Part shown: positions 7,906 through 29,274 of the stretch, one piece after another
Numbering within the stretch: the first letter of the stretch is position 1
Layout: each line of letters begins with the position of its first letter
DNA from: Synechococcaceae cyanobacterium
Lineage (GTDB): Bacteria; Cyanobacteriota; Cyanobacteriia; PCC-6307; Cyanobiaceae
Assembly (NCBI GenBank): GCA_046340895.1
Contig: JBKDSQ010000058.1
Span: 25,095-89,094, forward strand
Length of the DNA: 64,000 bases
Direction of reading: 5' to 3'
Position numbers and translations under genes: made by a program
The notes under the pieces: generated by a model
Told to the model about the DNA's origin: nothing
The model's input: the letters and a program-made list of their open reading frames with translations, nothing else
Database searches by the model: none

Positions 7906-8646
7906 ATGGCCGCTGCCCCCGATCCGCACGACTGGAGCCAGTGGCGGGGCCAGGCCCTGGTGGTGGGCCGCGGCGGCATTGGCCGGGCGCTGCTGGCGTC
8001 GTTGCCCCAGCACTGCCCGGAGCTGGAGATCTGGTCGGCGGGGCGGGATCCGCAGCAGCAGCGCCACCTCCAGCTCGACCTGGGCGACGACGCCAGCCTG
8101 GCGGCCTTCGCCGAGCAGGCGGCCCGGCACCTGCCCTGCCTGCGGCTGGTGATCCACACCAGCGGGCTTCTGCACGACGCCCAGCAGCAGCCGGAGAAGC
8201 GGCTGGCCCAGGTGCGGCGCGACTGGCTGGAGCGCAGCTTCGCGGTCAACGCCTGGGGGCCGCTGCTGCTCGCCCAGGCGCTGGAGGAGCGGCTGCCGCG
8301 CCAGCTGCCCTGCCGGTTCGCCAGCCTCTCGGCCCGGGTCGGCAGCATCGGCGACAACCGGCTCGGCGGCTGGTACGCCTACCGGGCCGCCAAGGCCGCC
8401 CAGAACCAGCTGCTCACCACCCTGGCGCTGGAATGGCGGCGCCGCCGGCCGCTCACCAGCGTGACCCTGCTGCATCCGGGCACCACGGCCACGTCCCTGT
8501 CGGAGCCGTTCCGCGGCGGTGTGGCGCCGGAGCGGCTGTTCAGCCCGGAGCAGGCCGCCGGGCACCTGCTGACGGTGCTGGCCGGACAGCGGCCGGAGAA
8601 CAGCGGTGCCTTCCTGGCCTGGGACGGCCAACCGATCCCCTGGTGA
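7906..8646 (+). CDS. Short-chain dehydrogenase/reductase (C-factor-like SDR)
   Basis: Real gene inside the long ORF 7435-8646. ATG at 7906 gives MAAAPD...ALVVGRGGIGRALL (cofactor-binding glycine motif) and YRAAKAA (YxxxK active site). Confidence 0.8.
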   Translation: MAAAPDPHDWSQWRGQALVVGRGGIGRALLASLPQHCPELEIWSAGRDPQQQRHLQLDLGDDASLAAFAEQAARHLPCLRLVIHTSGLLHDAQQQPEKRLAQVRRDWLERSFAVNAWGPLLLAQALEERLPRQLPCRFASLSARVGSIGDNRLGGWYAYRAAKAAQNQLLTTLALEWRRRRPLTSVTLLHPGTTATSLSEPFRGGVAPERLFSPEQAAGHLLTVLAGQRPENSGAFLAWDGQPIPW

Positions 8647-8681
8647 AACGCGGCGCAGCGGGCGGGGCCGCGGGGCCCGGC

Positions 8682-9095
8682 TCAGGCGGCGTGGGCGCGC
8701 AGCACCTCCAGCGGGATCACCTCCAGAGTGCTGGCTTCACAGGCCTCCAGGCGCACGGGCGGGGCCATGCCGTCTTCGTAGGCCTCCAGCCAGCGCGGGG
8801 CGCAGACGCACCAGGCATCGCCGGGGCGCAGGCCCGGGAAGCCGTAGGCCGGCGCCGGGGCGGTGAGGTCGTTGCCCTGGGCGCGGCTGTAGGAGAGAAA
8901 GCGCTCATCGACCACGCAGCAGACGGTGTGGCGGCCCAGGTCGGCGGGATCGGTGCGGCAGCTGCCATCGCGGAACCAGCCGGTCATCGGCTGGCAGCCG
9001 CAGACCTCGAGCGGGCCGCCGAGCACGTTGCGCGGGCCGCCCTGGGGTGCCGCCGCGGGGTGGGGATCGGTGGAGGGATCGGGGAGGGCGGCCAT
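8682..9095 (-). CDS. DUF2237 family protein
   Basis: ATG at 9093-9095. Sequence NVLGGPLEVCGCQPMTGWFRDGSCRTDPADLGRHTVCCVV...GNDLTAP...GLRPGDAWCVCAPRW matches the DUF2237 pattern I remember. Confidence 0.8.
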   Translation of the reverse strand: MAALPDPSTDPHPAAAPQGGPRNVLGGPLEVCGCQPMTGWFRDGSCRTDPADLGRHTVCCVVDERFLSYSRAQGNDLTAPAPAYGFPGLRPGDAWCVCAPRWLEAYEDGMAPPVRLEACEASTLEVIPLEVLRAHAA

Positions 9096-9230
9096 GGCCG
9101 GAGCGCGCACGGAACGGGGGTGAGTCTGCCGGCAGAAGGGCACAAAATGCGGCAGGGAGTTGACGGAATCCGGGGGGAGCGGGTTAAAGAACCTGTTACG
9201 ACACCCCGCGAGCAACCGCGCCGCCCCTTC

Positions 9231-9458
9231 ATGAGCTGGGATTTCACCGAGGACGCGGCCTTCCTGGCCCTCTGCGACGCCTACAAGGAGAGCGGTGAAC
9301 CCTCCGCGATGGAGTTCCTGGCCCACGGGGAGGGCGCCTTCCATTTCCAGGAGCTCACCCAGAACGCCGCCGGCGAAGGCCTCGACCTGTCGGACAGCAG
9401 CGATCTCGAGGAGTTCCAGCAGGAGGTGATCGACAGCCTGGAGCAGCTCTGCGACTGA
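9231..9458 (+). CDS. Small acidic hypothetical protein
   Basis: 75 codons starting at ATG 9231, inside the shadow ORF 7653-9458. Clean GC3-rich codon usage. No family recognised. Confidence 0.5.
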   Translation: MSWDFTEDAAFLALCDAYKESGEPSAMEFLAHGEGAFHFQELTQNAAGEGLDLSDSSDLEEFQQEVIDSLEQLCD

Positions 9459-20186: not shown

Positions 20187-21731
20187 CTACGGGCCCTCGG
20201 CGAGGCTGGCGGCGGCGCTGGCGCGGATCGCGGCCAGCTCGCTGGCGGGGATCTTCTCCAGCTGCCGCAGCACCAACGCCATGCGCGGGTTGGCGCGCAG
20301 GGAGTCGTGATGGCGGGCGAGGAAATCCCAGTAGAGGCTGGTGAAGGGGCAGGCGTCGGGGCCGCTGCGCTGCTTGGTGCTGTAGCGGCAGCCTTTGCAG
20401 TAGGTGCTCATCCGCTGGATGTAGGCGCCGCTGGCGGCGTAGGGCTTGCTGGCGAGGCGGCCACCGTCGGCGAAGAGACCCATTCCGAGCACGTTGGTCT
20501 GCATCACCCAATCGAAACCGTCGATGAACATGCGCTGGAACCAGGCCGTGAACGCCTGCGGATCGAGGCCGGCGAGCAGGCCGTAGTTGGCGAGCACCAT
20601 CAGGCGCTGGATGTGGTGCGCGTAGCCGCTGGCATGGAGTTCAGCGAGCACGGTGTCGAGGCAGGCCATGCCGCTGGTTCCCAGGCTGTCCAGCCAGTGG
20701 GGCAGCGGCCGGGTGGTGCCGAAATGGTTGAGCGCCGTGTAGTCGGCGCCGAACCAGTGGTAGAGGCCGTGGGTGTATTCGCGCCAGCCCAGGATCTGGC
20801 GGATCACGCCCTCCAGGCTGGCGAGCGGCGTGCCGCGCTCCAGCCCGGCGGCTTCGAGCCGGCGGATCACCTCCAGCGGATGGAGCAGGCCGAGGTTGAG
20901 GTAGGGGCTGAGCAGCGCATGCCAGAGGGTGGGCTGGCCGCTCACCATCGCGTCCTGGTAAGGCCCGAAGCCATCGAGGCGGGTGGCGATGAAGTGCTCC
21001 AGCACCTGCAGCGCCTGGGCGCGCGACACGCCCCAGCCAAAGGGCCGCGCAACCCCGGGCAGTGGCGGCAGGCCGGCGGCAAGGCGTTCCGCTGCGAGCG
21101 CTTCCACGCGCGCGATCACGGCCTCGGTGATGGCATCGGGCTGGAACTGCAGCGGCGGCGGCCCCTGCAGCCCCTTGGGCGGCGCCTTGCGGTTGTCGTG
21201 GTCGTAATTCCACTGGCCGCCCAGCGGCTCCGGCCCATCCATCAGCACCTCGAAGCGGCGCCGCCCCTCGCGGTAGAAGAACTCCATCCGCAGCTGCTTG
21301 TAGCGGCCGGCCCAGGCGGCGAAGTCTTGTCGGCTCCAGAGGAAGGCGTTGGAGGGATGCCACAGCAGCCGCAGCGGCCGGTGGGCGGCGATGGCGGCGA
21401 CGGCGCGTTCGATGGCGGCGCGGAAGGGCCGATCGGCCGGCTCCATCAGGTGGAGTTCCTCGATGCCGTGTTCGGCGCACCAGGCGTCGAGGGCGGTGGA
21501 GAAGCTCTCCGCCTCCAGGGCATCCACCTGCCAGCCGTTCAGGCGCAGCTCGGCGGCGAAGTGGCGCATGGCGCTCCACACCAGCACCAGTTTCTGTTGG
21601 TGGAAGGCATGGCGGGCCAGAACTGACGTGCTCTCGATCAGCAGCACCCGCGCCGCGCCGGGCTGGTGGGCCGCCAGGGCGCTCTGGCCGGCATGGAGCT
21701 GATCCCCCAACACCCAGACGCCGATGCTCAT
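20187..21731 (-). CDS. Cryptochrome/photolyase-family protein, FeS-BCP / (6-4) photolyase-like
   Basis: ATG at 21729-21731 (MSIGVWVLGDQL, the COG3046-type N-terminus). The C-terminus has four Cys (CKGC...C...C, in YCKGCRYSTKQRSGPDACPF), as expected for the 4Fe-4S cluster of this subfamily. Confidence 0.85.
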   Translation of the reverse strand: MSIGVWVLGDQLHAGQSALAAHQPGAARVLLIESTSVLARHAFHQQKLVLVWSAMRHFAAELRLNGWQVDALEAESFSTALDAWCAEHGIEELHLMEPADRPFRAAIERAVAAIAAHRPLRLLWHPSNAFLWSRQDFAAWAGRYKQLRMEFFYREGRRRFEVLMDGPEPLGGQWNYDHDNRKAPPKGLQGPPPLQFQPDAITEAVIARVEALAAERLAAGLPPLPGVARPFGWGVSRAQALQVLEHFIATRLDGFGPYQDAMVSGQPTLWHALLSPYLNLGLLHPLEVIRRLEAAGLERGTPLASLEGVIRQILGWREYTHGLYHWFGADYTALNHFGTTRPLPHWLDSLGTSGMACLDTVLAELHASGYAHHIQRLMVLANYGLLAGLDPQAFTAWFQRMFIDGFDWVMQTNVLGMGLFADGGRLASKPYAASGAYIQRMSTYCKGCRYSTKQRSGPDACPFTSLYWDFLARHHDSLRANPRMALVLRQLEKIPASELAAIRASAAASLAEGP

Positions 21732-22102
21732 GCCGGCGGACCCTCGATCTGGCTGAGCCGGCAGGCGCGCCGCGCCACGGCGGCGCCATAGCCGCGCTCC
21801 ACAGAGCCGAACTCGGGGCTGATGCGTCCGTCGCGGCAGTCGACGGTGATGCGTTCGTGGTGGCCGCGCTGGTCGCTGAGGCGCAGCCGCAACTGATAGG
21901 GGCGGGCGGGGTTGCGGTGGAAGTCGTCGCCGCACACCGGACCCACGCAGAGACCGGGTGCGGCGCGGGCAGGGCTCGGGCCAGCGAAGGCGAACAGCAG
22001 CAGGAGCGCCAGGGCCGCCAGAGCCTCCCCGCCGCCTGCCAGAGCAGGCCAGCGGGGCCTTTCCGGTGGCCGCGAACCGAAGCGGAGGCGAAGGCAAGGC
22101 AA
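21728..22102 (-). CDS. Small exported Cys-containing hypothetical protein
   Basis: High GC3. Signal-like ALAALALLLLFAFAGPSPARA. Its stop overlaps the photolyase ATG (ATGA), which suggests translational coupling. The start is unclear: TTG at 22102 is my guess, and the ORF is open to 22225. Confidence 0.5.
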   Translation of the reverse strand: MPCLRLRFGSRPPERPRWPALAGGGEALAALALLLLFAFAGPSPARAAPGLCVGPVCGDDFHRNPARPYQLRLRLSDQRGHHERITVDCRDGRISPEFGSVERGYGAAVARRACRLSQIEGPPA

Positions 22103-22158
22103 GGGTGCAGCCCCGGGCAGGATCGCTGCATCCTGATGCCTCGTGGCGGGTGAGGGGC

Positions 22159-22470
22159 TCAGCTCTCCCCCTCGCCGACGGGTTCCGTGGATGCCGTACC
22201 CAGGAAGGCCCGGTTCTGGGCCCAATAGATGTGGATCGGCTTTTCATTGCGCAGGAGATCCAGCACGCTCTGGAACATGGTGCTCGGGAGGTGCATCAGG
22301 ATCATGCCGCCGTTGTTGGCATCTGCCTCGAAGGCCATGCCGGGGTCGTTGAAGCGCACGTAGGCGATCGGTGTGCCCGTGGTGCCGTAGAGGGTGATCT
22401 GGGAACGGTTCGTCTGGTAGCCGCTTGGGCCGCCGTAAACGAGCACGTGGTAGTTGGTGACTTCGGCCAT
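22159..22470 (-). CDS. Hypothetical 103-aa protein
   Basis: ATG at 22470 preceded by AGGAG about 7 nt upstream (minus-strand sequence ...gcaggagaatcccATG). Coherent codon usage. No family recognised. Lies at the left border of the AT-rich island. Confidence 0.6.
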   Translation of the reverse strand: MAEVTNYHVLVYGGPSGYQTNRSQITLYGTTGTPIAYVRFNDPGMAFEADANNGGMILMHLPSTMFQSVLDLLRNEKPIHIYWAQNRAFLGTASTEPVGEGES

Positions 22471-22797
22471 GGGATTCTCCTGCCTCGAATGGCATGTGGC
22501 ACTGAATTCAGGCTAGAGCTGATAGGCGCGAATCAACGATGAACTTTGGTGACGGATACCACGACTTGCGATGTGAACATGAATGACAACAGCAAAGTCG
22601 GCAAGAAATCAGATGCAATGATCGGTAGGCTGGATCTCAATCTTTGGCCACGCGCAAGTTCGGCATTTCCCCGGGACAATCACAGCCTGAAAACGGAAAC
22701 ACATAGAAACCTCCATGTGGACGGATGCGAGCTGGTGGCAGGCGAGCAGGCCTCGCTGGCACTCCTCGTGAGGCATCCATCAAATCAGGCAGAGAGC

Positions 22798-23541
22798 TCA
22801 GCCCCCCACCACCAGGGCATCGGCAATCTCATAGCGCTCACCATTCTCCCCAAGACGGATCACAGAGAGATCACCCCGCCGCTGCACCAAAAGCTTCTCC
22901 GGTTGATCGGAAGCCACCGCTTTGCCATTCACGAACAGAAACTGCCGCTTCTGGCCCTCGGGATTGGTGACCACCACAGTGCCGCTTTTGTTGGCCCTGC
23001 GAATCACGCTGGCTTTGCACCAGGCGGCCTTACCACTGCTCCCAGACGCACAGGCCACTTCCCCTGAGGCGTGATAGGGAGTGCCGGGAACCAGAGCATC
23101 CTGGGAAGCCGGCACAGGAACGAGGGAGGTGCCGCTGATCCCCACACGAAGGCTGTAGCGGCTCGATTCCTTGCGGCGCGCCGCTGCACGCATCAGATAC
23201 ACCCGCACCGTTACATCGCCATCACTGGGCAGGAGGCCACGGAAGCTATTGTCTGAGCTGCTGCCGATGAACAGGGCGCTCTCCGCACCCGCCGCCATCA
23301 CGTTGAAATAGTTCTGGGGGTTGGAACCCTTCAGTTCCACCGTCAGGGTTTGACCAGCGCCTGCTCGCAGTTTGTAGTCGACGGTCTGGTAGCCCTTGAG
23401 CTGGCCTTGGAGCAGGGTGGAATCGGTGCCGACTCGAAAGTTGACCCTTTGGCTCTGGATTGCAGGCTGGGCAACGCCAATCGCAGCCGGGAGGGTGGTT
23501 GCCAGGAGGCAAGCGGCAACGGTGGCGAGCAATGCACGCAT
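22798..23541 (-). CDS. Exported hypothetical protein (island ORF D)
   Basis: ATG at 23539-23541 gives MRALLATVAACLLATTLPAAIGVAQP, a signal peptide. Beta-rich mature part with paired Cys (VACASGSSGKAAWC). Intermediate G+C. Confidence 0.65.
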   Translation of the reverse strand: MRALLATVAACLLATTLPAAIGVAQPAIQSQRVNFRVGTDSTLLQGQLKGYQTVDYKLRAGAGQTLTVELKGSNPQNYFNVMAAGAESALFIGSSSDNSFRGLLPSDGDVTVRVYLMRAAARRKESSRYSLRVGISGTSLVPVPASQDALVPGTPYHASGEVACASGSSGKAAWCKASVIRRANKSGTVVVTNPEGQKRQFLFVNGKAVASDQPEKLLVQRRGDLSVIRLGENGERYEIADALVVGG

Positions 23542-23687
23542 CGGACGCTTAGGAGTGGGGCTTTCGGAGACTAGCCCGCTTGCTCTCTGAAATACTAGCC
23601 GCCGCATATCAACTGACGCGAATGGTTAGTCACCATGCCTGGATACATTGAGGAGGATACATATTAAACCACCAAATGACAGATATT

Positions 23688-24092
23688 CTAACGGATAAGT
23701 TCAGCGGTTGACGCGGGCGTATGCGTCAATCCGCAGCAACGCCGGGCTGGAACAGGCGTGCGGCCAATGGAATAAAACACTGGTGTGCAAGCATGGAAGG
23801 AATAATCACCTTTCGGCCGCAATAATGCAATTATCGCAACGATGACTAGATAGTCAGGCTTAAGACGAAGGAAGAAGGTGGGTTCACCGCACTTTGATTT
23901 TCCAAAGCCCACGCAGAACTCGAATACCCATTGAAGATGACTTTCGAGTGGCGGGGAGGAAATCTGACTTATCGCTGCCATAGCATACAGTCCGGCGAAT
24001 ACGAGAAAGACATTTATCCCGATATACCAAGCCTCTCCGATTTCTTCACGATATAGCGGTTTTCGTGTGCGAATCCATTCATAGCCTTTCAT
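23688..24092 (-). CDS. Small membrane protein (island ORF C)
   Basis: 134-aa ATG ORF in the AT-rich region. Hydrophobic segments WYIGINVFLVFAGLYAMAAISQI and YLVIVAIIALL. No family recognised. Confidence 0.5.
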   Translation of the reverse strand: MKGYEWIRTRKPLYREEIGEAWYIGINVFLVFAGLYAMAAISQISSPPLESHLQWVFEFCVGFGKSKCGEPTFFLRLKPDYLVIVAIIALLRPKGDYSFHACTPVFYSIGRTPVPARRCCGLTHTPASTAELIR

Positions 24093-24267
24093 GCGTCAGA
24101 AAGCTACCCACGCTATCATTGCGGACGGAACAAATAAGAGAAGTATGCTCATAAGACTTGCGGGGTGCGTCTAACGCCCTTGATCTAGCGCGTAAGTATG
24201 TTGGCATGGCTTTTGCGCCCTTTGGAAAAGGAATGACGACATACTTTCTTCGCTCAGGATCGGTTTA

Positions 24268-25563
24268 CTAGGCATGATCATCACCTACACCTAAACCTCT
24301 AAGAATCTCCCAGACAGGAAGAAATGCTCGCAGCGTGCCATATGAGTACATTGGCAAATCATCATGGTAATAAAGACCCTCCTTCATCTCGAACATGTGG
24401 CTGACATATCTTGAGTAAATGTCTCTTAGAAGTCCTGTTTGAAATATATCTAGATTGTGAGTGAACACGGAGCTGATCATCGATGTCTTAACTCCATACC
24501 AATCAGGGAGCGAGATCTCGCAGCGTACACTCTTCCCGTGACGGTTGAGAAAGCACTTATCAAACTCGTCCTTTACCGCTCTTATTGCGAAATCATGAAA
24601 GCCTGACTCCATAGATTCTAGCCAGAGATCTTTCTCATGCTCGTCTAACTGGTCGTAGATAGCTTGTATTTCAGTAACCCTACCCTCCCTAGTCTCGCCA
24701 AATATCTCTCCCTCATGGCAGGACCCTCGAAAAGAAGCAAAAGGATTGACGAAAACCGCATATATAGCATTTGGGTATGGGAAGATCTGGCCAATTTCAC
24801 CCCATTGTTGCGTCGCATAGACAAGAGAGTGGAAACCTTGTGCCTCCAAACGATGAGAAATCGCGCTCGAGATTGTGTTTAGGGCACTCTTGGAGTATTC
24901 GGGAATTTGTCCCCCGTTCTCTACATCTATGTCGATCCATCCCTTTACTTCTTCGAACTCTATTGCGACGACATACATTGAACGATCGTCAAGGAGGTTA
25001 TTCTCAAACCATTGATAGTACGACGCATCAGGATAGTAGATTTCTAGATTTATCTTGCTGTTCTCTTCCCTTGGGACAAGAGCGAGTGATGATTTTCCAT
25101 TTCCGAGCACTTCCTGCACATAAGCATCTCTAACTGTTCTGCTCTCCATTGGTGCAACAAGGACAGTATTGATAGCTTTTTCAGTAAGCCCCGGGAAGAT
25201 TGAGCAGAAGTGATTCGAATAAGCAAGCAACTCCGTGAAAGCCTGCCGCTCAGTTTGTTTCGACTTCTTTAACTCAATGATCGTGAGTCCAATGCATTCT
25301 GAGTTCCCGAATAAGTCTATTCGTGTTGTTGAGTCTCCAGTTCTTTCTAGCCTAAGCTCTCGTGCGGACAGAACCAGAGATTCAAGTCCAGCAACAATCG
25401 AGTTAATTCTTGTTTCCACAATTTGCTGCAATAGTATGCTTATCGGAGGGAATTCTTCCTTTGCCCATGAAATTGGCTCTCGTCGTCCACGAATGAGCCT
25501 GTGAAACGACTCTTTGTAATTCTCAAAGAGATGGTCTCTTAACTGGTTCTCGGTGTGTAACAT
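24268..25563 (-). CDS. PD-(D/E)xK nuclease-like protein, NucS/DUF1016-like N-terminal core plus unknown 300-aa region (island ORF B)
   Basis: 431-aa ATG ORF in the lowest-G+C part of the window. Residues about 5-120 read ENQLRDHLFEN...TRIDLFGNSECIGLTIIELKKSKQTERQAFTELLAYSNH, i.e. D83...E97-x-K99...Q107...Y115. This is the layout I know from NucS-C/YhcG-type endonucleases. The assignment is by eye only. Confidence 0.7.
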   Translation of the reverse strand: MLHTENQLRDHLFENYKESFHRLIRGRREPISWAKEEFPPISILLQQIVETRINSIVAGLESLVLSARELRLERTGDSTTRIDLFGNSECIGLTIIELKKSKQTERQAFTELLAYSNHFCSIFPGLTEKAINTVLVAPMESRTVRDAYVQEVLGNGKSSLALVPREENSKINLEIYYPDASYYQWFENNLLDDRSMYVVAIEFEEVKGWIDIDVENGGQIPEYSKSALNTISSAISHRLEAQGFHSLVYATQQWGEIGQIFPYPNAIYAVFVNPFASFRGSCHEGEIFGETREGRVTEIQAIYDQLDEHEKDLWLESMESGFHDFAIRAVKDEFDKCFLNRHGKSVRCEISLPDWYGVKTSMISSVFTHNLDIFQTGLLRDIYSRYVSHMFEMKEGLYYHDDLPMYSYGTLRAFLPVWEILRGLGVGDDHA

Positions 25564-25698
25564 GAAAGATCACTTTATTTTTTGAGTTTACGCCTATTGC
25601 CTAACGCCGAAGTTAATCTGCAAAGCCGGGTGCGCTGGACCGGAACTGCCGAGGAGGGATGGCCGGCTTTGTCATTTTCAACGTCACGTTAGACAACT

Positions 25699-26856
25699 CT
25701 ACTGAGATACCCGGACTGCTTCATCATACAGACCGTACGCCCGAAGTAGCCGCAGGGAGTCGCGACCGTCGATTAAGCAGTAGCGGCGCGACCTGCCCGG
25801 ATGCACCGCGAATGCGCGCAAGGTCGCACGCACAGGCGGGGTGATCTCGTGTGAATGCTGAACAAAGAGAACGTCGGCTGGCTCTTGTGCCAATCGGTAT
25901 ATCTGGTCGTTGTTCTTGCCGAGGTGATTCAGACCCATTGGAGCGAACCTCGCGGGACCCTTCAACAAGAATGCCCCGGAGACTCGGCGCCCGCCGAGAT
26001 GTAGATGAGCAGTGAAGTGGTCCGACTGTTCTCCGCCCCAGTCCTTGGTTACCGGGTCTCCAAGAATCCGCGCAAGGCTCACCTTGAACGCATTCTCCGA
26101 AACAAGCTTCATGGGTTCAACGGAATCCGGCACCGGTTCGTCATTGACCTTGTCGAACTCACAAAAGTCTTCGATGAAGTGCTCAAAAAAGTCTTGTGTC
26201 CACCAAATGATCTCGTCAGCCCAAGCGGGGTCCTCCGACCGTAACCACGGTGCCCCGATGATCAAGGGCCTGAAGTAGAGACTGTTCCCTTCCTTGCGGT
26301 TGAATACGGCGATGATGGACTGCAGGGCACCAGTAGTAAGCTCCGTGCGCGTGGTGTCAGCATGGATGTGCTTCGTTGAATACTCAAGTAGGACTCGGTA
26401 CTCCGTCGTCCCGGCTGGCTTGATCTCGCTCGAGGTCCGTTCCGACTCGTAAACAGCCCCGTTCGGAAGCAACTGCTCGGTCGAGCAGAACATCCTCCCG
26501 GCCCCAGCGCTGAGCAACTGTGCGAGCGTGGGAATCCTATTGACGTTGCAGAACGCCAGCATGACGTCCGTGTAGATGTGATCGAGACGGATAGATGCTT
26601 GCCACTCGGGATGGGGTGGCAGCCGAGTGGTCATTTCGTCGACGACCTTGATGCCGGCTGGCCCGAGCACGCTCTGGACTGCCCGGCGGTTCACGAAGCC
26701 GGGGTCGATTGTGTGTTCAAGCGGGAGCGCCCGCTTGGATGGTGATAGTTGCTGCCGGATGGGTGAGCCGTCTGTCATCGACCGTGTGGGTTGTCTAACG
26801 ATTATGGATAAATCGCGCTCAGTCGAGATCTTATCCGAAGTTGAACAAGCCGTCAA
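25699..26856 (-). CDS. Restriction-endonuclease-like protein with unknown N-terminal domain (island ORF A)
   Basis: 385-aa ORF from TTG 26856, or 359 aa from ATG 26778. The C-terminal block KDWGGEQSDHFTAHLHLGGRRVSGAFLLKGP...LFVQHSHE has an E/D...xK arrangement (E276, D279, K299, with later acidic E337) that resembles a type II/IV REase catalytic core. No P-loop or methylase motif. Confidence 0.65.
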   Translation of the reverse strand: MTACSTSDKISTERDLSIIVRQPTRSMTDGSPIRQQLSPSKRALPLEHTIDPGFVNRRAVQSVLGPAGIKVVDEMTTRLPPHPEWQASIRLDHIYTDVMLAFCNVNRIPTLAQLLSAGAGRMFCSTEQLLPNGAVYESERTSSEIKPAGTTEYRVLLEYSTKHIHADTTRTELTTGALQSIIAVFNRKEGNSLYFRPLIIGAPWLRSEDPAWADEIIWWTQDFFEHFIEDFCEFDKVNDEPVPDSVEPMKLVSENAFKVSLARILGDPVTKDWGGEQSDHFTAHLHLGGRRVSGAFLLKGPARFAPMGLNHLGKNNDQIYRLAQEPADVLFVQHSHEITPPVRATLRAFAVHPGRSRRYCLIDGRDSLRLLRAYGLYDEAVRVSQ

Positions 26857-27201
26857 CCAAGAAGCCCCGGTCTACTGCAGAAAGATCAGGCCCTTCCTCA
26901 GGCTTTCTTTGGATTTCCGAATAGGCACAAGAGCCTAGGGCTGGCGGTTGGTGCGTTCCCTGCTGTCTTTGCGAGCAATGTAACGGCACAGCGGCTGACG
27001 ACCAGTCTATTCCCATGGCAAGCTGTCCGCGATTGTCTTGAGCGGCTACAGGCTAAGGTCTATTTCCCTTCTTGGGGTAGACGGATCAGCCCGGAGCTGG
27101 ACTGCTCTCCCGCACCCGCACCGCCACGATCTCCATCACCCCGCCACAGAGCGGACAGTAGATCGGAGGCCTGGGTTGCTGTAGTCGGGGCTCCGGCAGC
27201 A

Positions 27202-29274
27202 TCACATGGCAGCTGCCACCCCCTCCCCCGCCTCAACCACCACCGCCATCCCACCCCTGCTCTCCTCACCCTCTTCCCCCTCCACCACCCCATCCCCCTC
27301 CGGATGGAAATACTCCCAAACCTGCCGCGCCAGCGCCGGCCCCATCCCGGGCGCCTGGGCGAGGGTTTCAGGGCTGGCCAGCTGAATCGCATCGATCGAG
27401 CGGAAGTGGGCCAGCAGGTCGCGCACGCGCTTGGGGCCCAGGCCGGGGATGTCGCTGAGGCGGGAGCGCTTCATGCGCTCGCCCCGCTGCTGGCGGTGGA
27501 AGCTCACCGCGAAGCGGTGCGCCTCATCGCGCAAGCGGCGCAGCAGCGCCACGCCCAGTTGGTCGGGGTCGCTTTCCAGCGGTTGCTTGGCGCCGGGCAC
27601 GAACACCTCCTCGCGTTGCTTGGCCAGCGAGCACACCACCAGATCGCCGGCCAGGTTCAGCTCGCGCAGGGCCTCCATCACCGCCGACAGCTGGCCCTTG
27701 CCGCCGTCGATCATCACCACATCCGGCCAGTCGCCCATGCCGTCGGTGGCCAGGGCCGTGGCGCTGCGTTTGCGCAGCTCCCCCAGATCCGCTCCCTCCG
27801 CCTTCGCCTGCGCCCAGCGCCGGAACCGCCGCCGGATCACCTCCGCCATCGCCATAAAGTCATCAGAATGGCCGGCGCGGATGCTGCTGCTGCGGATCTT
27901 GTACTTGCGGTAGTGCTGCTTCGCCGGCAACCCATCCACAAACACCACCTGCGACGCCACCGCATCGCTGCCCTGGATGTGGCTGATGTCATACCCCTCG
28001 ATTCGCCGCGGCGGCTCATTCAGCTCCAGCAGCTGGGCCAGGTCTTCAATCGCCAGCTGGTTTTGCTCGCTCGCCCGCTGGGCCCGCTGCAGCTCATAGC
28101 CGGCGTTGCGCTCCACCAGCTCGATCAGTTCCGCCTTCTGCTGCCGCTGCGGCACCGCCAGCTTCACCTTGCGGCCCCGCAATTCCGCCAGCCACGCCTC
28201 GATCAGCCCCTGCTGCGGCAGCGCCTCCTGCAACAACAGCTCCGGCGGGATCTCCACCGCCTCCACCTGGCCGTAGTGCTCCTCGATCACCCGCTGCAAA
28301 ATCAGCCCCGGCGGCAGCGGCTCCTGATCCGGCCCCAGCGCATCCGCCGTGAACCCCAGCCGGCCCACCAACTTTCCAGCCCGCATCTGGAACAGCTGCA
28401 CCGCCGCCACCCGGCCATCACTGGCCAGCCCCAGCACATCGCGGCTCACCGAGCTGTCGCCCAGGCTCATCTTCTGATCCGCCGTGAGCGTGTCGAGCCC
28501 CTGGATCTGGTCGCGCACCCGTGCCGCCGCCTCGAAATCCAGCCGCTCCGCCAGCCGCGCCATCTGCTCCTGCAGCAGCCGCATCAACTCCTCATTCCTT
28601 CCCTGGAACACCATCGCCACCTTGCGCAGCGTGCGGTGGTAATCCTCCGAGCTGATCTTCTGCTGGCACACGCCCGGGCAGCGGCCGATGTCGTAATTCA
28701 GGCAGGGGCGGTCGCGGTGCAGCGGTTGCGGGCGCTGGCGCAGCGGAAACACCCGCTTCACCAGCGACAACGTGCGCCGCAGCAGGCCCACATCCACATA
28801 CGGCCCATAAAACCGATCCAGCGGGCTGCGCAGCCGCCGCCGCCGCGTGATGAAGATCCTTGGATAGGCCTCGCTCCAGGTGATGCACAGATACGGGTAT
28901 TTCTTGTCGTCTTTCAGCAGCACGTTGAAATGCGGCTGGTGCGCTTTGATCAGATTTGATTCCAGCGCCAGCGCTTCGGCTTCGCTATCGGTAACAATAA
29001 ACTCGATCTCGCATACCTGGCGCACCATCAGGCGGATGCGCGGGCTATGGCCGTGGCCCGAGCCGCTCTGGAAATAGCTGCGCACCCGGTTGCGCAGCAC
29101 CTTCGCTTTACCGATATAGAGAATGCGGTCGTCGCCGTCGCGAAACAGGTAACAGCCCGGCTCCACCGGCAGGTTCTGCAGCCGCTCCTTCAGCCGCAGC
29201 GGCCGCTGCAGCAGCGGCCCCGCCCCAGGCTCACGCGACGCCGCGATCCCCTCGGTCACCGTCGCCTCGCTCAC
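27202..29274 (-). CDS. uvrC: Excinuclease ABC subunit C
   Basis: 690 aa. GIY-YIG N-terminus ([24 protein letters not shown]), UVR domain, endonuclease V-like region and a C-terminal HhH. GTG start overlaps the stop of the next gene (GTGA). Confidence 0.95.

Follow-up and report, generated by a model that had tools for sequence, protein, structure and literature searches.

The stretch of DNA analyzed here (hereafter the window) comprises 64,000 nucleotides of contig JBKDSQ010000058.1 from a Synechococcaceae cyanobacterium, and the gene under study is an open reading frame (ORF) on its minus strand at 24268..25563, which we refer to as ORF B. The gene starts with ATG and encodes 431 amino acids (aa) followed by a stop codon, and per the ORF list and homologue searches its product belongs to an unannotated family of proteins of about 430 aa. 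The original prediction for this DNA, which had been made from the letters alone, described ORF B as having a NucS/YhcG-type endonuclease core at its N-terminus. The gene as called there is real, given the ORF list and the conserved homologues, and the residue numbering used (E5, D83, E97, K99, Q107, Y115, D193, E205, and K207) agrees with a codon-by-codon translation. The strings TRIDLFG, IIELK, and LLDDRSMYVVAIEFEEVK were all found in this translation, whose C-terminus reads ...WEILRGLGVGDDHA. All features of ORF B described below, as well as the ORFs directly upstream and downstream of it and the photolyase-related gene, lie on the minus strand.

ORF B is a foreign-looking gene. As had been predicted, it has the lowest G+C content of the window, with an overall GC fraction of 0.444 and a third-codon-position fraction (GC3) of 0.454, against a GC fraction of 0.695 for the window and a GC3 of 0.84-0.87 for the host genes near it; the lowest-GC segment of 1296 bp begins at 24291, within ORF B. 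The leader and intergenic region 5' of the gene (25564..25698, GC 0.489) is A-rich and lacks a GGAGG-like Shine-Dalgarno sequence, as had also been noted and as can be read directly from the sequence (...GTAAACTCAAAAAATAAAGTGATCTTTC-ATG, also written ...AACTCAAAAAATAAAGTGATCTTTC-ATG). No sigma-70-like site was scored in this region.

The N-terminal ~160 aa of ORF B very probably form a PD-(D/E)xK nuclease domain. This part of the protein begins with short helices in residues 1-23 (25495..25563; helices 5-16 and 20-23 in the structural model), which carry E5 and had been written as an "E..LrD.L..N" helix in the original prediction. They are followed by the predicted core at residues 41-158 (25090..25443), which contains the putative catalytic signature D83 ... 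E97-L-K99 ... QTERQ ... E111-L-L-A-Y115 (25219..25317; codons verified). In an alignment of 46 diverse full-length homologues (alignment A2, mean column identity about 22-25%), D83 and Y115 are present in 46/46 sequences and E97 and K99 in 45/46, while E5, E105, R106, and T110 are each kept in at least 90%; position 111 is E in 40 sequences, Q in 5, and D in 1. When the comparison was extended to 22 sequences including fifteen relatives of ~700 aa at only 16-21% identity (alignment A6), E5, D83, E97, K99, R106, E111, L112, Y115, P274, and G377 were invariant. The residues that survive longest are therefore those expected of a PD-(D/E)xK site, namely a Glu in the leading helix, the Asp, the ExK, and then an [EQ]xxxY helix. 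In the HSDR_N group the core is typically preceded by a helix carrying a conserved Glu, and the [EQ]xxxY spacing is a RecB-family motif. Judging from these alignments, the conservation of the ORF B motif exceeds chance.

Not every residue proposed for this site behaves in the same way. The conservation check suggested with the original prediction upheld D83, E97, K99, and Y115 (45-46/46), and it spoke against Q107, which is Q in 23 of the 46 homologues, E in 17, N in 4, and S in 2. The pair E111-x3-Y115 fits the RecB-type [QE]xxxY pattern better than Q107 does, so the residue conserved together with Y115 is E111 and not Q107. In P0152, a member of the family, E97 and K99 are replaced by M and H, and inactive derivatives exist in the PD-(D/E)xK superfamily, which would suit a catalytically dead scaffold that only binds, for instance as a regulator or adaptor. 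Against this, the full D...ExK triad together with E5, E111, and Y115 is kept in 45-46/46 homologues and no other residues of the protein are better conserved, so that we regard a dead scaffold as very improbable.

Structure prediction, which had likewise been suggested as a check, points the same way. A full-length AlphaFold2 model of ORF B was generated from a 25-sequence alignment, with a mean predicted local distance difference test score (pLDDT) of 74 and a predicted template modeling score (pTM) of 0.72. It places a helix at 41-60, strands at 64-73, 79-88, and 92-98, a helix at 105-122, a strand at 131-136, and a helix at 142-154, an alpha-beta-beta-beta-alpha-beta-alpha order which includes the alpha-beta-beta-beta-alpha-beta core topology of the PD-(D/E)xK superfamily. 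In this model D83 lies on strand 2, E97 ends strand 3, and K99 lies just beyond it, so the conserved acidic residue on strand 2 and the (D/E)xK of strand 3 that mark the superfamily would be supplied by D83, E97, and K99. A Foldseek search of the PDB retrieved as its top matches the nuclease domain of AdnA (E 2.8e-3) and EndoMS/NucS (5gke, E 4.4e-3, probability 1.00), followed lower down by XisH, SfsA, DrdV, Card1, and Nt.BspD6I. The top named matches among viral models were a cyanophage restriction endonuclease, an MmcB-like protein, and a Cas4-family protein.

Profile searches gave a mixed answer. The best matches are to PD-(D/E)xK families, in keeping with the original prediction, and all of them fall below curated thresholds. 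Scanning the 46 members against Pfam yielded HSDR_N for 20 (best E 1.1e-4), NucS_C for 4, NERD for 3, HSDR_N_2 for 2, and an MmcB-like domain for 1, with every match covering the same region and falling short of the gathering score; we take these families to belong to a single Pfam PD-(D/E)xK clan. Scanning the same proteins against PADLOC yielded PDC-S11 for 14 (best E 7.3e-6) and Cas4 for 2, with matches confined to the nuclease core, and the weak HSDR_N, NucS, and PDC-S11 matches fall on residues 45-149. In sequence searches of the PDB, neither the single protein nor the family profile retrieved a relative, the only match being a chance-level one to PAC2 (E 1.6). Taken together, the conservation of D83, E97, K99, and Y115, the predicted topology, and the best though weak fold and profile matches sustain the predicted nuclease core at the N-terminus.

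The NucS/YhcG label attached to that core does not stand. ORF B shares with NucS/EndoMS a minimal PD-(D/E)xK core, in which a [QE]xxxY-type helix comes after D...ExK, and weak hidden Markov model matches over residues 80-146. However, the NCBIfam NucS model (NF003270) scores 12.9 bits against a cut-off of 216 bits, and NucS_C (PF01939, cut-off 24 bits) is matched by only 4/46 members, with a best E of 0.036. Neither YhcG/DUF1016 (PF06250) nor DUF4263 (PF14082) was matched by ORF B at E <= 1 or by any of the 46 members at E <= 0.1. In NucS an N-terminal DNA-binding and dimerization domain precedes a C-terminal nuclease, whereas the ORF B core is preceded by short helices only and is followed by an unrelated module of ~270 aa. 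The two also differ in distribution, in that NucS is a repair gene of particular lineages and the ORF B family is sporadic and horizontally transferred. These differences bear on whether ORF B might be a NucS/EndoMS-like repair endonuclease that acts on mismatched or branched DNA in service of the host genome. EndoMS being the second-best Foldseek match, the NCBIfam NucS match (E 0.043), a truncated homologue with a name beginning "DUF91 domain", and the proximity of ORF B to uvrC and a photolyase-related gene in the window are all in favor of such a role. We nevertheless consider it improbable, as the scores are far under the cut-offs, the NucS N-terminal domain is missing and the nuclease comes first, the distribution is sporadic and driven by horizontal transfer, the composition is foreign, and proximity to uvrC is conserved at no other locus.

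Other PD-(D/E)xK families resemble ORF B in part. HSDR_N (PF04313), which is the nuclease domain at the N-terminus of type I restriction R subunits, is the commonest weak Pfam match and covers the D...ExK core. In ORF B itself it matches residues 63-118 (E 0.026, 14.8 bits), and the best relative seen reaches 22.0 bits, against a gathering score of 25.1 bits. Unlike type I R subunits, ORF B has no ResIII or helicase domain, and no HsdM or HsdS partner is conserved. Shedu (SduA, DUF4263) offers an analogy in design, being a single-gene defense protein that combines a PD-(D/E)xK nuclease with a variable or sensor region, as ORF B may do, and Shedu genes are direct neighbors of family members at several loci. 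However, there is no SduA/DUF4263 sequence match, the SduA structure 8ps5 is retrieved by Foldseek only at E 0.28, and the domain order is reversed, the nuclease not being first in SduA and being first in ORF B. Similar to ORF B, the PDC-S11 profiles (358-379 positions) describe proteins of comparable size, and the match falls at the same N-terminal position. However, only profile positions ~30-120, corresponding to the nuclease core, are aligned; ORF B matches only with E 0.02 and most of the distant members have no match. From sequence comparison, then, ORF B does not belong to NucS, YhcG/DUF1016, HSDR_N, or Shedu and lies outside all curated families. The PDC models themselves represent unvalidated defense candidates obtained by "guilt by embedding" (PADLOC; PMC10855318; bioRxiv 10.1101/2024.01.29.577857), and in the literature PDC-S11 was found mentioned only as such a candidate. 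No paper was found linking "NucS-like" with anti-phage activity, and the papers combining DUF91 and defense are, going by their titles and abstracts, unrelated to ORF B.

The remainder of the protein (residues 159-431, 24271..25089) is a conserved acidic region predicted to consist of a beta-hairpin, an alpha/beta sandwich, and a helical part. The description of this part as acidic and aromatic-rich was accurate (isoelectric point (pI) 4.7-5.0, 14% F+W+Y). P178, E240, N273, and P274 are invariant in the 46 homologues, N265, T376, G377, and R380 are kept in at least 90%, and W355 is found in 41/46. The ~700-aa relatives still align at P274, W355, and G377 and carry long extra segments after about residue 390. 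An AlphaFold2 model of residues 156-431 from a 53-sequence alignment was obtained with pLDDT 88.2 and pTM 0.83. Searching the PDB with this model by Foldseek retrieved nothing significant (best E 0.02, TM-score at most 0.34), and the matches are unrelated ferredoxin-like folds: the origin-binding domain of adeno-associated virus Rep, the dimerization domain of an M20 amidohydrolase, S-adenosylmethionine lyase, mCpol, and MoaC. The C-terminal part is thus, as far as the model indicates, a conserved module with no recognizable fold or known structural relative, and its acidity (pI 4.7 for the region) would argue against a classical DNA-binding role. The original prediction had also tentatively placed a second, degenerate D193...E205-x-K207 motif here (24943..24987). 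This motif is not conserved and is thereby refuted, with D193 found in 12/46 homologues, E205 in 6/46, and K207 in 3/46, and E205 and K207 vary already among close homologues.

Searching 5.8 billion proteins retrieved 344 homologues of ORF B, nearly all of them ~432 aa long and aligning end to end. Every named homologue is a "hypothetical protein", apart from the truncated copy whose UniRef name begins with "DUF91 domain". Among 1.84 billion representatives, a search with the family profile yielded no more than 231 clusters at E <= 1e-3, and the family is therefore rare. These clusters fall into three groups: full-length proteins of ~430-480 aa (down to ~22% identity), fragments, and proteins of ~700 aa that have the N-terminal part in common. 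The last of these, a sister group (P0230-P0269), has ~300 extra residues after about position 390 and keeps E5, D83, E97, K99, E111, Y115, P274, W355, and G377; no Pfam domain was found in the five members scanned. Pfam, NCBIfam, and PADLOC contain no model for the ORF B family. PHROGs v4 does contain a family, phrog_30092, to which ORF B has a significant and collinear match (E 3.5e-7), as do four relatives from viral contigs (E 1e-11 to 2.6e-5), with up to 290/408 profile positions covered. On these matches, phrog_30092 is the sole library family to which ORF B really belongs. It carries no functional annotation and so adds occurrence in phages or prophages and no mechanism.

Members of the family were found in cyanobacteria, Gamma-, Beta-, and Alphaproteobacteria, Campylobacterota, Victivallales, Ozemobacteraceae, Chloroflexia, Elusimicrobia, Bacteroidota, and a Methanogenium metagenome-assembled genome (MAG). 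Protein identity is 55-76% across the copies of cyanobacteria, Pseudomonas, Victivallales, Ozemobacteraceae, Sulfuricurvum, and the Methanogenium MAG. The last of these copies is 58% identical and lies at 8001-9287 on a 28-kb contig (L016) binned as a methanogenic archaeon; it represents either a transfer from bacteria to archaea or a binning error. Pseudomonas ulcerans 147P has two family copies on different contigs (L017 and L029), with 55% and 52% identity to ORF B.

The family moves as a single-gene cassette, with no methyltransferase, antitoxin, or fixed partner, and its sites of arrival include variable islands, prophages, satellites, and conjugative plasmids. When 758 neighboring ORFs from 46 loci were compared all against all, no recurring family was found save for synteny within the Pseudomonas putida group, and the three neighbors of ORF B in the window are absent from all other loci by tblastn. 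The gene is AT-richer than its flanks in 38/42 loci, with a median difference of -10 points. Several arrangements with more than one component were considered and rejected. A two-gene system with the upstream ORF was set aside, the upstream genes in the window and in Pseudomonas kilonensis being unrelated and no partner recurring in the 46 loci. A toxin-antitoxin pair was rejected for want of a conserved small ORF upstream or downstream. A conserved flanking DNA or leader was likewise rejected, as the blastn alignments of the window with homologous loci do not extend beyond the ORF, and so was a non-coding RNA, there being no Rfam match in 21500-27500.

Members of the family are often found near genes of defense systems or on mobile elements. 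On the conjugative plasmid pRgalR602a of Rhizobium gallicum, the order is a Shedu nuclease, an ATP-binding protein with a UvrD helicase (a Gabija-like pair), a hypothetical protein, the family member, and a SLATT protein with a nucleotidyltransferase. In P. kilonensis the family member is preceded by a Toprim-domain protein of 903 aa and two small ORFs and directly adjoins an integrase, on an element that also has Ogr/Delta and that we read as a P4-like satellite; the integrase-proximal region of P4-like satellites is a known defense hotspot. A locus in an uncultured lineage has a PLD-family nuclease, Abi_alpha, and IS110 beside the family member, and in P. congelans the neighbor is a KAP NTPase. 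Among IMG/VR contigs, one has the family member between HipA and a pair made up of an HNH and an AAA_15/AAA_21 protein, which we read as Septu-like, another has it adjoining Zot, and in further contigs it adjoins a SMEK-domain protein. Among 150 ORFs within two genes of family members, PADLOC matches at E <= 1e-5 included a type I restriction endonuclease and methyltransferase, GajA, the cyclase, effector, and SAVED components of the cyclic-oligonucleotide-based anti-phage signaling system (CBASS), SduA, and mad2. ORFs more than 4.5 kb from the family member additionally matched type I S, LmuB, AbiEi, mad5, and PDC-S02.

One viral relative invites a different reading. On a lambda-like IMG/VR contig (L063:7989-9476), a 40%-identical relative has the gpA-type terminase large subunit on one side and, on the other, an ORF6N protein and the portal gene, and this place inside the packaging module is a moron or homing-type position. 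ORF B could accordingly be a selfish or element-serving nuclease, either a free-standing homing-type enzyme or a prophage or satellite gene used for competition between elements, degradation of host DNA, or recombination. Such a role would agree with the relatives beside Zot or on the element read as a P4-like satellite, with the PHROG family match, and with the observation that between loci conservation is confined to the ORF itself. However, most copies are chromosomal or plasmid-borne beside defense genes, and the flanking genes differ at every locus, so that there is no conserved target site. Furthermore, free-standing homing endonucleases are not typically proteins of 430 aa in which a large second domain is conserved. 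We therefore hold this explanation to be unlikely.

On balance, we lean towards ORF B being a stand-alone mobile DNA endonuclease and a candidate for defense, most likely a single-gene system against phages or other mobile elements. In this scheme the N-terminal domain of ~160 residues would carry out metal-dependent DNA cleavage. Following the general PD-(D/E)xK mechanism, D83 and E97 would hold the catalytic metal and K99 would position the attacking water, with E5 and E111-x3-Y115 completing the active site. The acidic C-terminal ~270 residues might control or target the nuclease, perhaps as a sensor of some phage cue or as a means of keeping the enzyme inactive, and would probably not be a classical basic DNA-binding domain. 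The role of the protein would be to exclude phages or other mobile DNA, in a logic that may be like that of Shedu or of type IV restriction enzymes. Discrimination of self from non-self would then be intrinsic to the protein, whether through dependence on DNA modification, a Shedu-like preference for structures or ends, or a phage factor that activates the enzyme. A more far-reaching version of this proposal, which we would put a little short of even, is that the family constitutes a new single-gene anti-phage family in which a novel acidic sensor domain, one lacking any structural relative, gates a PD-(D/E)xK nuclease. In that case the family, residing on prophages, satellites, and conjugative plasmids, would have a horizontal spread that extends from picocyanobacteria of freshwater to Pseudomonas, Bacteroidota, Elusimicrobia, and perhaps archaea.

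A particular case of the defense proposal is a type IV-like, modification-dependent restriction endonuclease, in which the C-terminal module reads a modification of phage DNA and licenses the nuclease. This would explain the absence of an accompanying methyltransferase, as no methyltransferase or other partner is conserved in the 46 loci, and it would sit well with solitary mobility and defense-island neighbors. The type IV enzymes PvuRts1I and AbaSI have a nuclease followed by an accessory domain, an order that ORF B appears to resemble. However, an acidic C-terminal region (pI 4.7) is unusual for a domain that reads DNA, and the module has no fold similarity to SRA, YTH, or other readers of modified bases, its best PDB matches being ferredoxin-like at E >= 0.02. 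We consider this sub-case unlikely.

We would like to note that several results weigh against ORF B being a defense nuclease. Confidence in the full-length model is no more than moderate (pLDDT 74), and no PD-(D/E)xK family is matched at a curated threshold or, in Foldseek searches of the PDB and of viral models, at E <= 1e-3. No PADLOC model of a validated defense system was matched. The distal control ORFs also match defense models, and the neighbor counts are aggregates with no calibrated background. Many loci are not obvious defense islands, and several have no defense genes whatsoever, among them those of Anabaena (between housekeeping genes), Limnothrix (beside TonB and ClpB), and Halopseudomonas (among metabolic genes). 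Lastly, ORF B and two viral-contig relatives had no match in 50,697 GenBank phage records.

If the defense proposal is true, a compact one-gene nuclease system of ~430 aa would be added to the catalogue of prokaryotic immunity, and a small, strain-variable, defense-like island would be flagged in an abundant lineage of freshwater picocyanobacteria whose defense repertoires are poorly known. It would also raise the question of how stand-alone nucleases distinguish foreign DNA from self without a methyltransferase, a question for which the putative regulatory or sensor domain at the C-terminus, modeled confidently without a solved match, offers structural and mechanistic studies a concrete starting point. 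Should the function not be defense, this would still be an unannotated and widely transferred nuclease family deserving a Pfam, NCBIfam, or PADLOC model.

ORF B sits in a low-GC island of ~5 kb between the photolyase-related (DPRP) gene and a gene which, from our own reading of the window translation, we take to be uvrC. The mechanical 686-aa ORF of the DPRP gene (20187-22247) is over-extended; a public contig of the same genome calls a protein of 514 aa with PF04244. Long spurious ORFs overlap this gene on both strands, as is expected at ~70% GC. No convincing direct repeats were found at the island borders, and the nearest tRNAs lie at 57 kb.

Upstream of ORF B lies a 359-aa orphan ORF (25699..26778), which we regard as context and not as a partner. 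The mechanical ORF reaches a TTG at 26856, and gene calls start at M27. It contains ...KDWGGEQSDHF...AFLLKG... and has a GC3 of 0.70, intermediate between the host and ORF B. Its product belongs to a separate, well-conserved orphan family with 929 homologues and has no Pfam, NCBIfam, PADLOC, PHROG, or PDB match. A 52%-identical homologue is embedded among type I restriction-modification genes, a GmrSD-HNH protein, and an ImmA/DUF4411 pair; because of this position the upstream ORF may be a second defense candidate, and the ~5-kb stretch looks like a small defense-type island. Downstream of ORF B is a 134-aa ORF (23688..24092) that is doubtful as a gene. It has a low GC3 like that of ORF B (0.467) and two hydrophobic stretches, matches no family, and is not conserved beside other family members. 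It may have come along with ORF B or may not be a gene.

ORF B was detectable in about 20 sequencing runs from at least 12 studies, nearly all of them freshwater metagenomes. Coverage of the flanking core genes is 20-220x in four freshwater metagenomes and that of the island (21835-27174) only ~1-12x, which suggests that only a minor or variable sub-population carries the island. One metagenome contig joins 27764 to 22959 with 18 extra bases, which might be an island-less allele; a search of metagenome contigs for such an allele with the 18-nt junction gave 22 matches, all unrelated to the window. Within the island, 23437-23970 shows a depth spike of 23-211x in the same four metagenomes, against ~1-12x for the rest of the island. 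This segment, in which no Rfam match was found, spans the 3' half of the 134-aa ORF along with the 5' end and upstream region of an ORF for a secreted protein of 269 aa. A piece of ~0.5 kb is common to much more abundant genomes.

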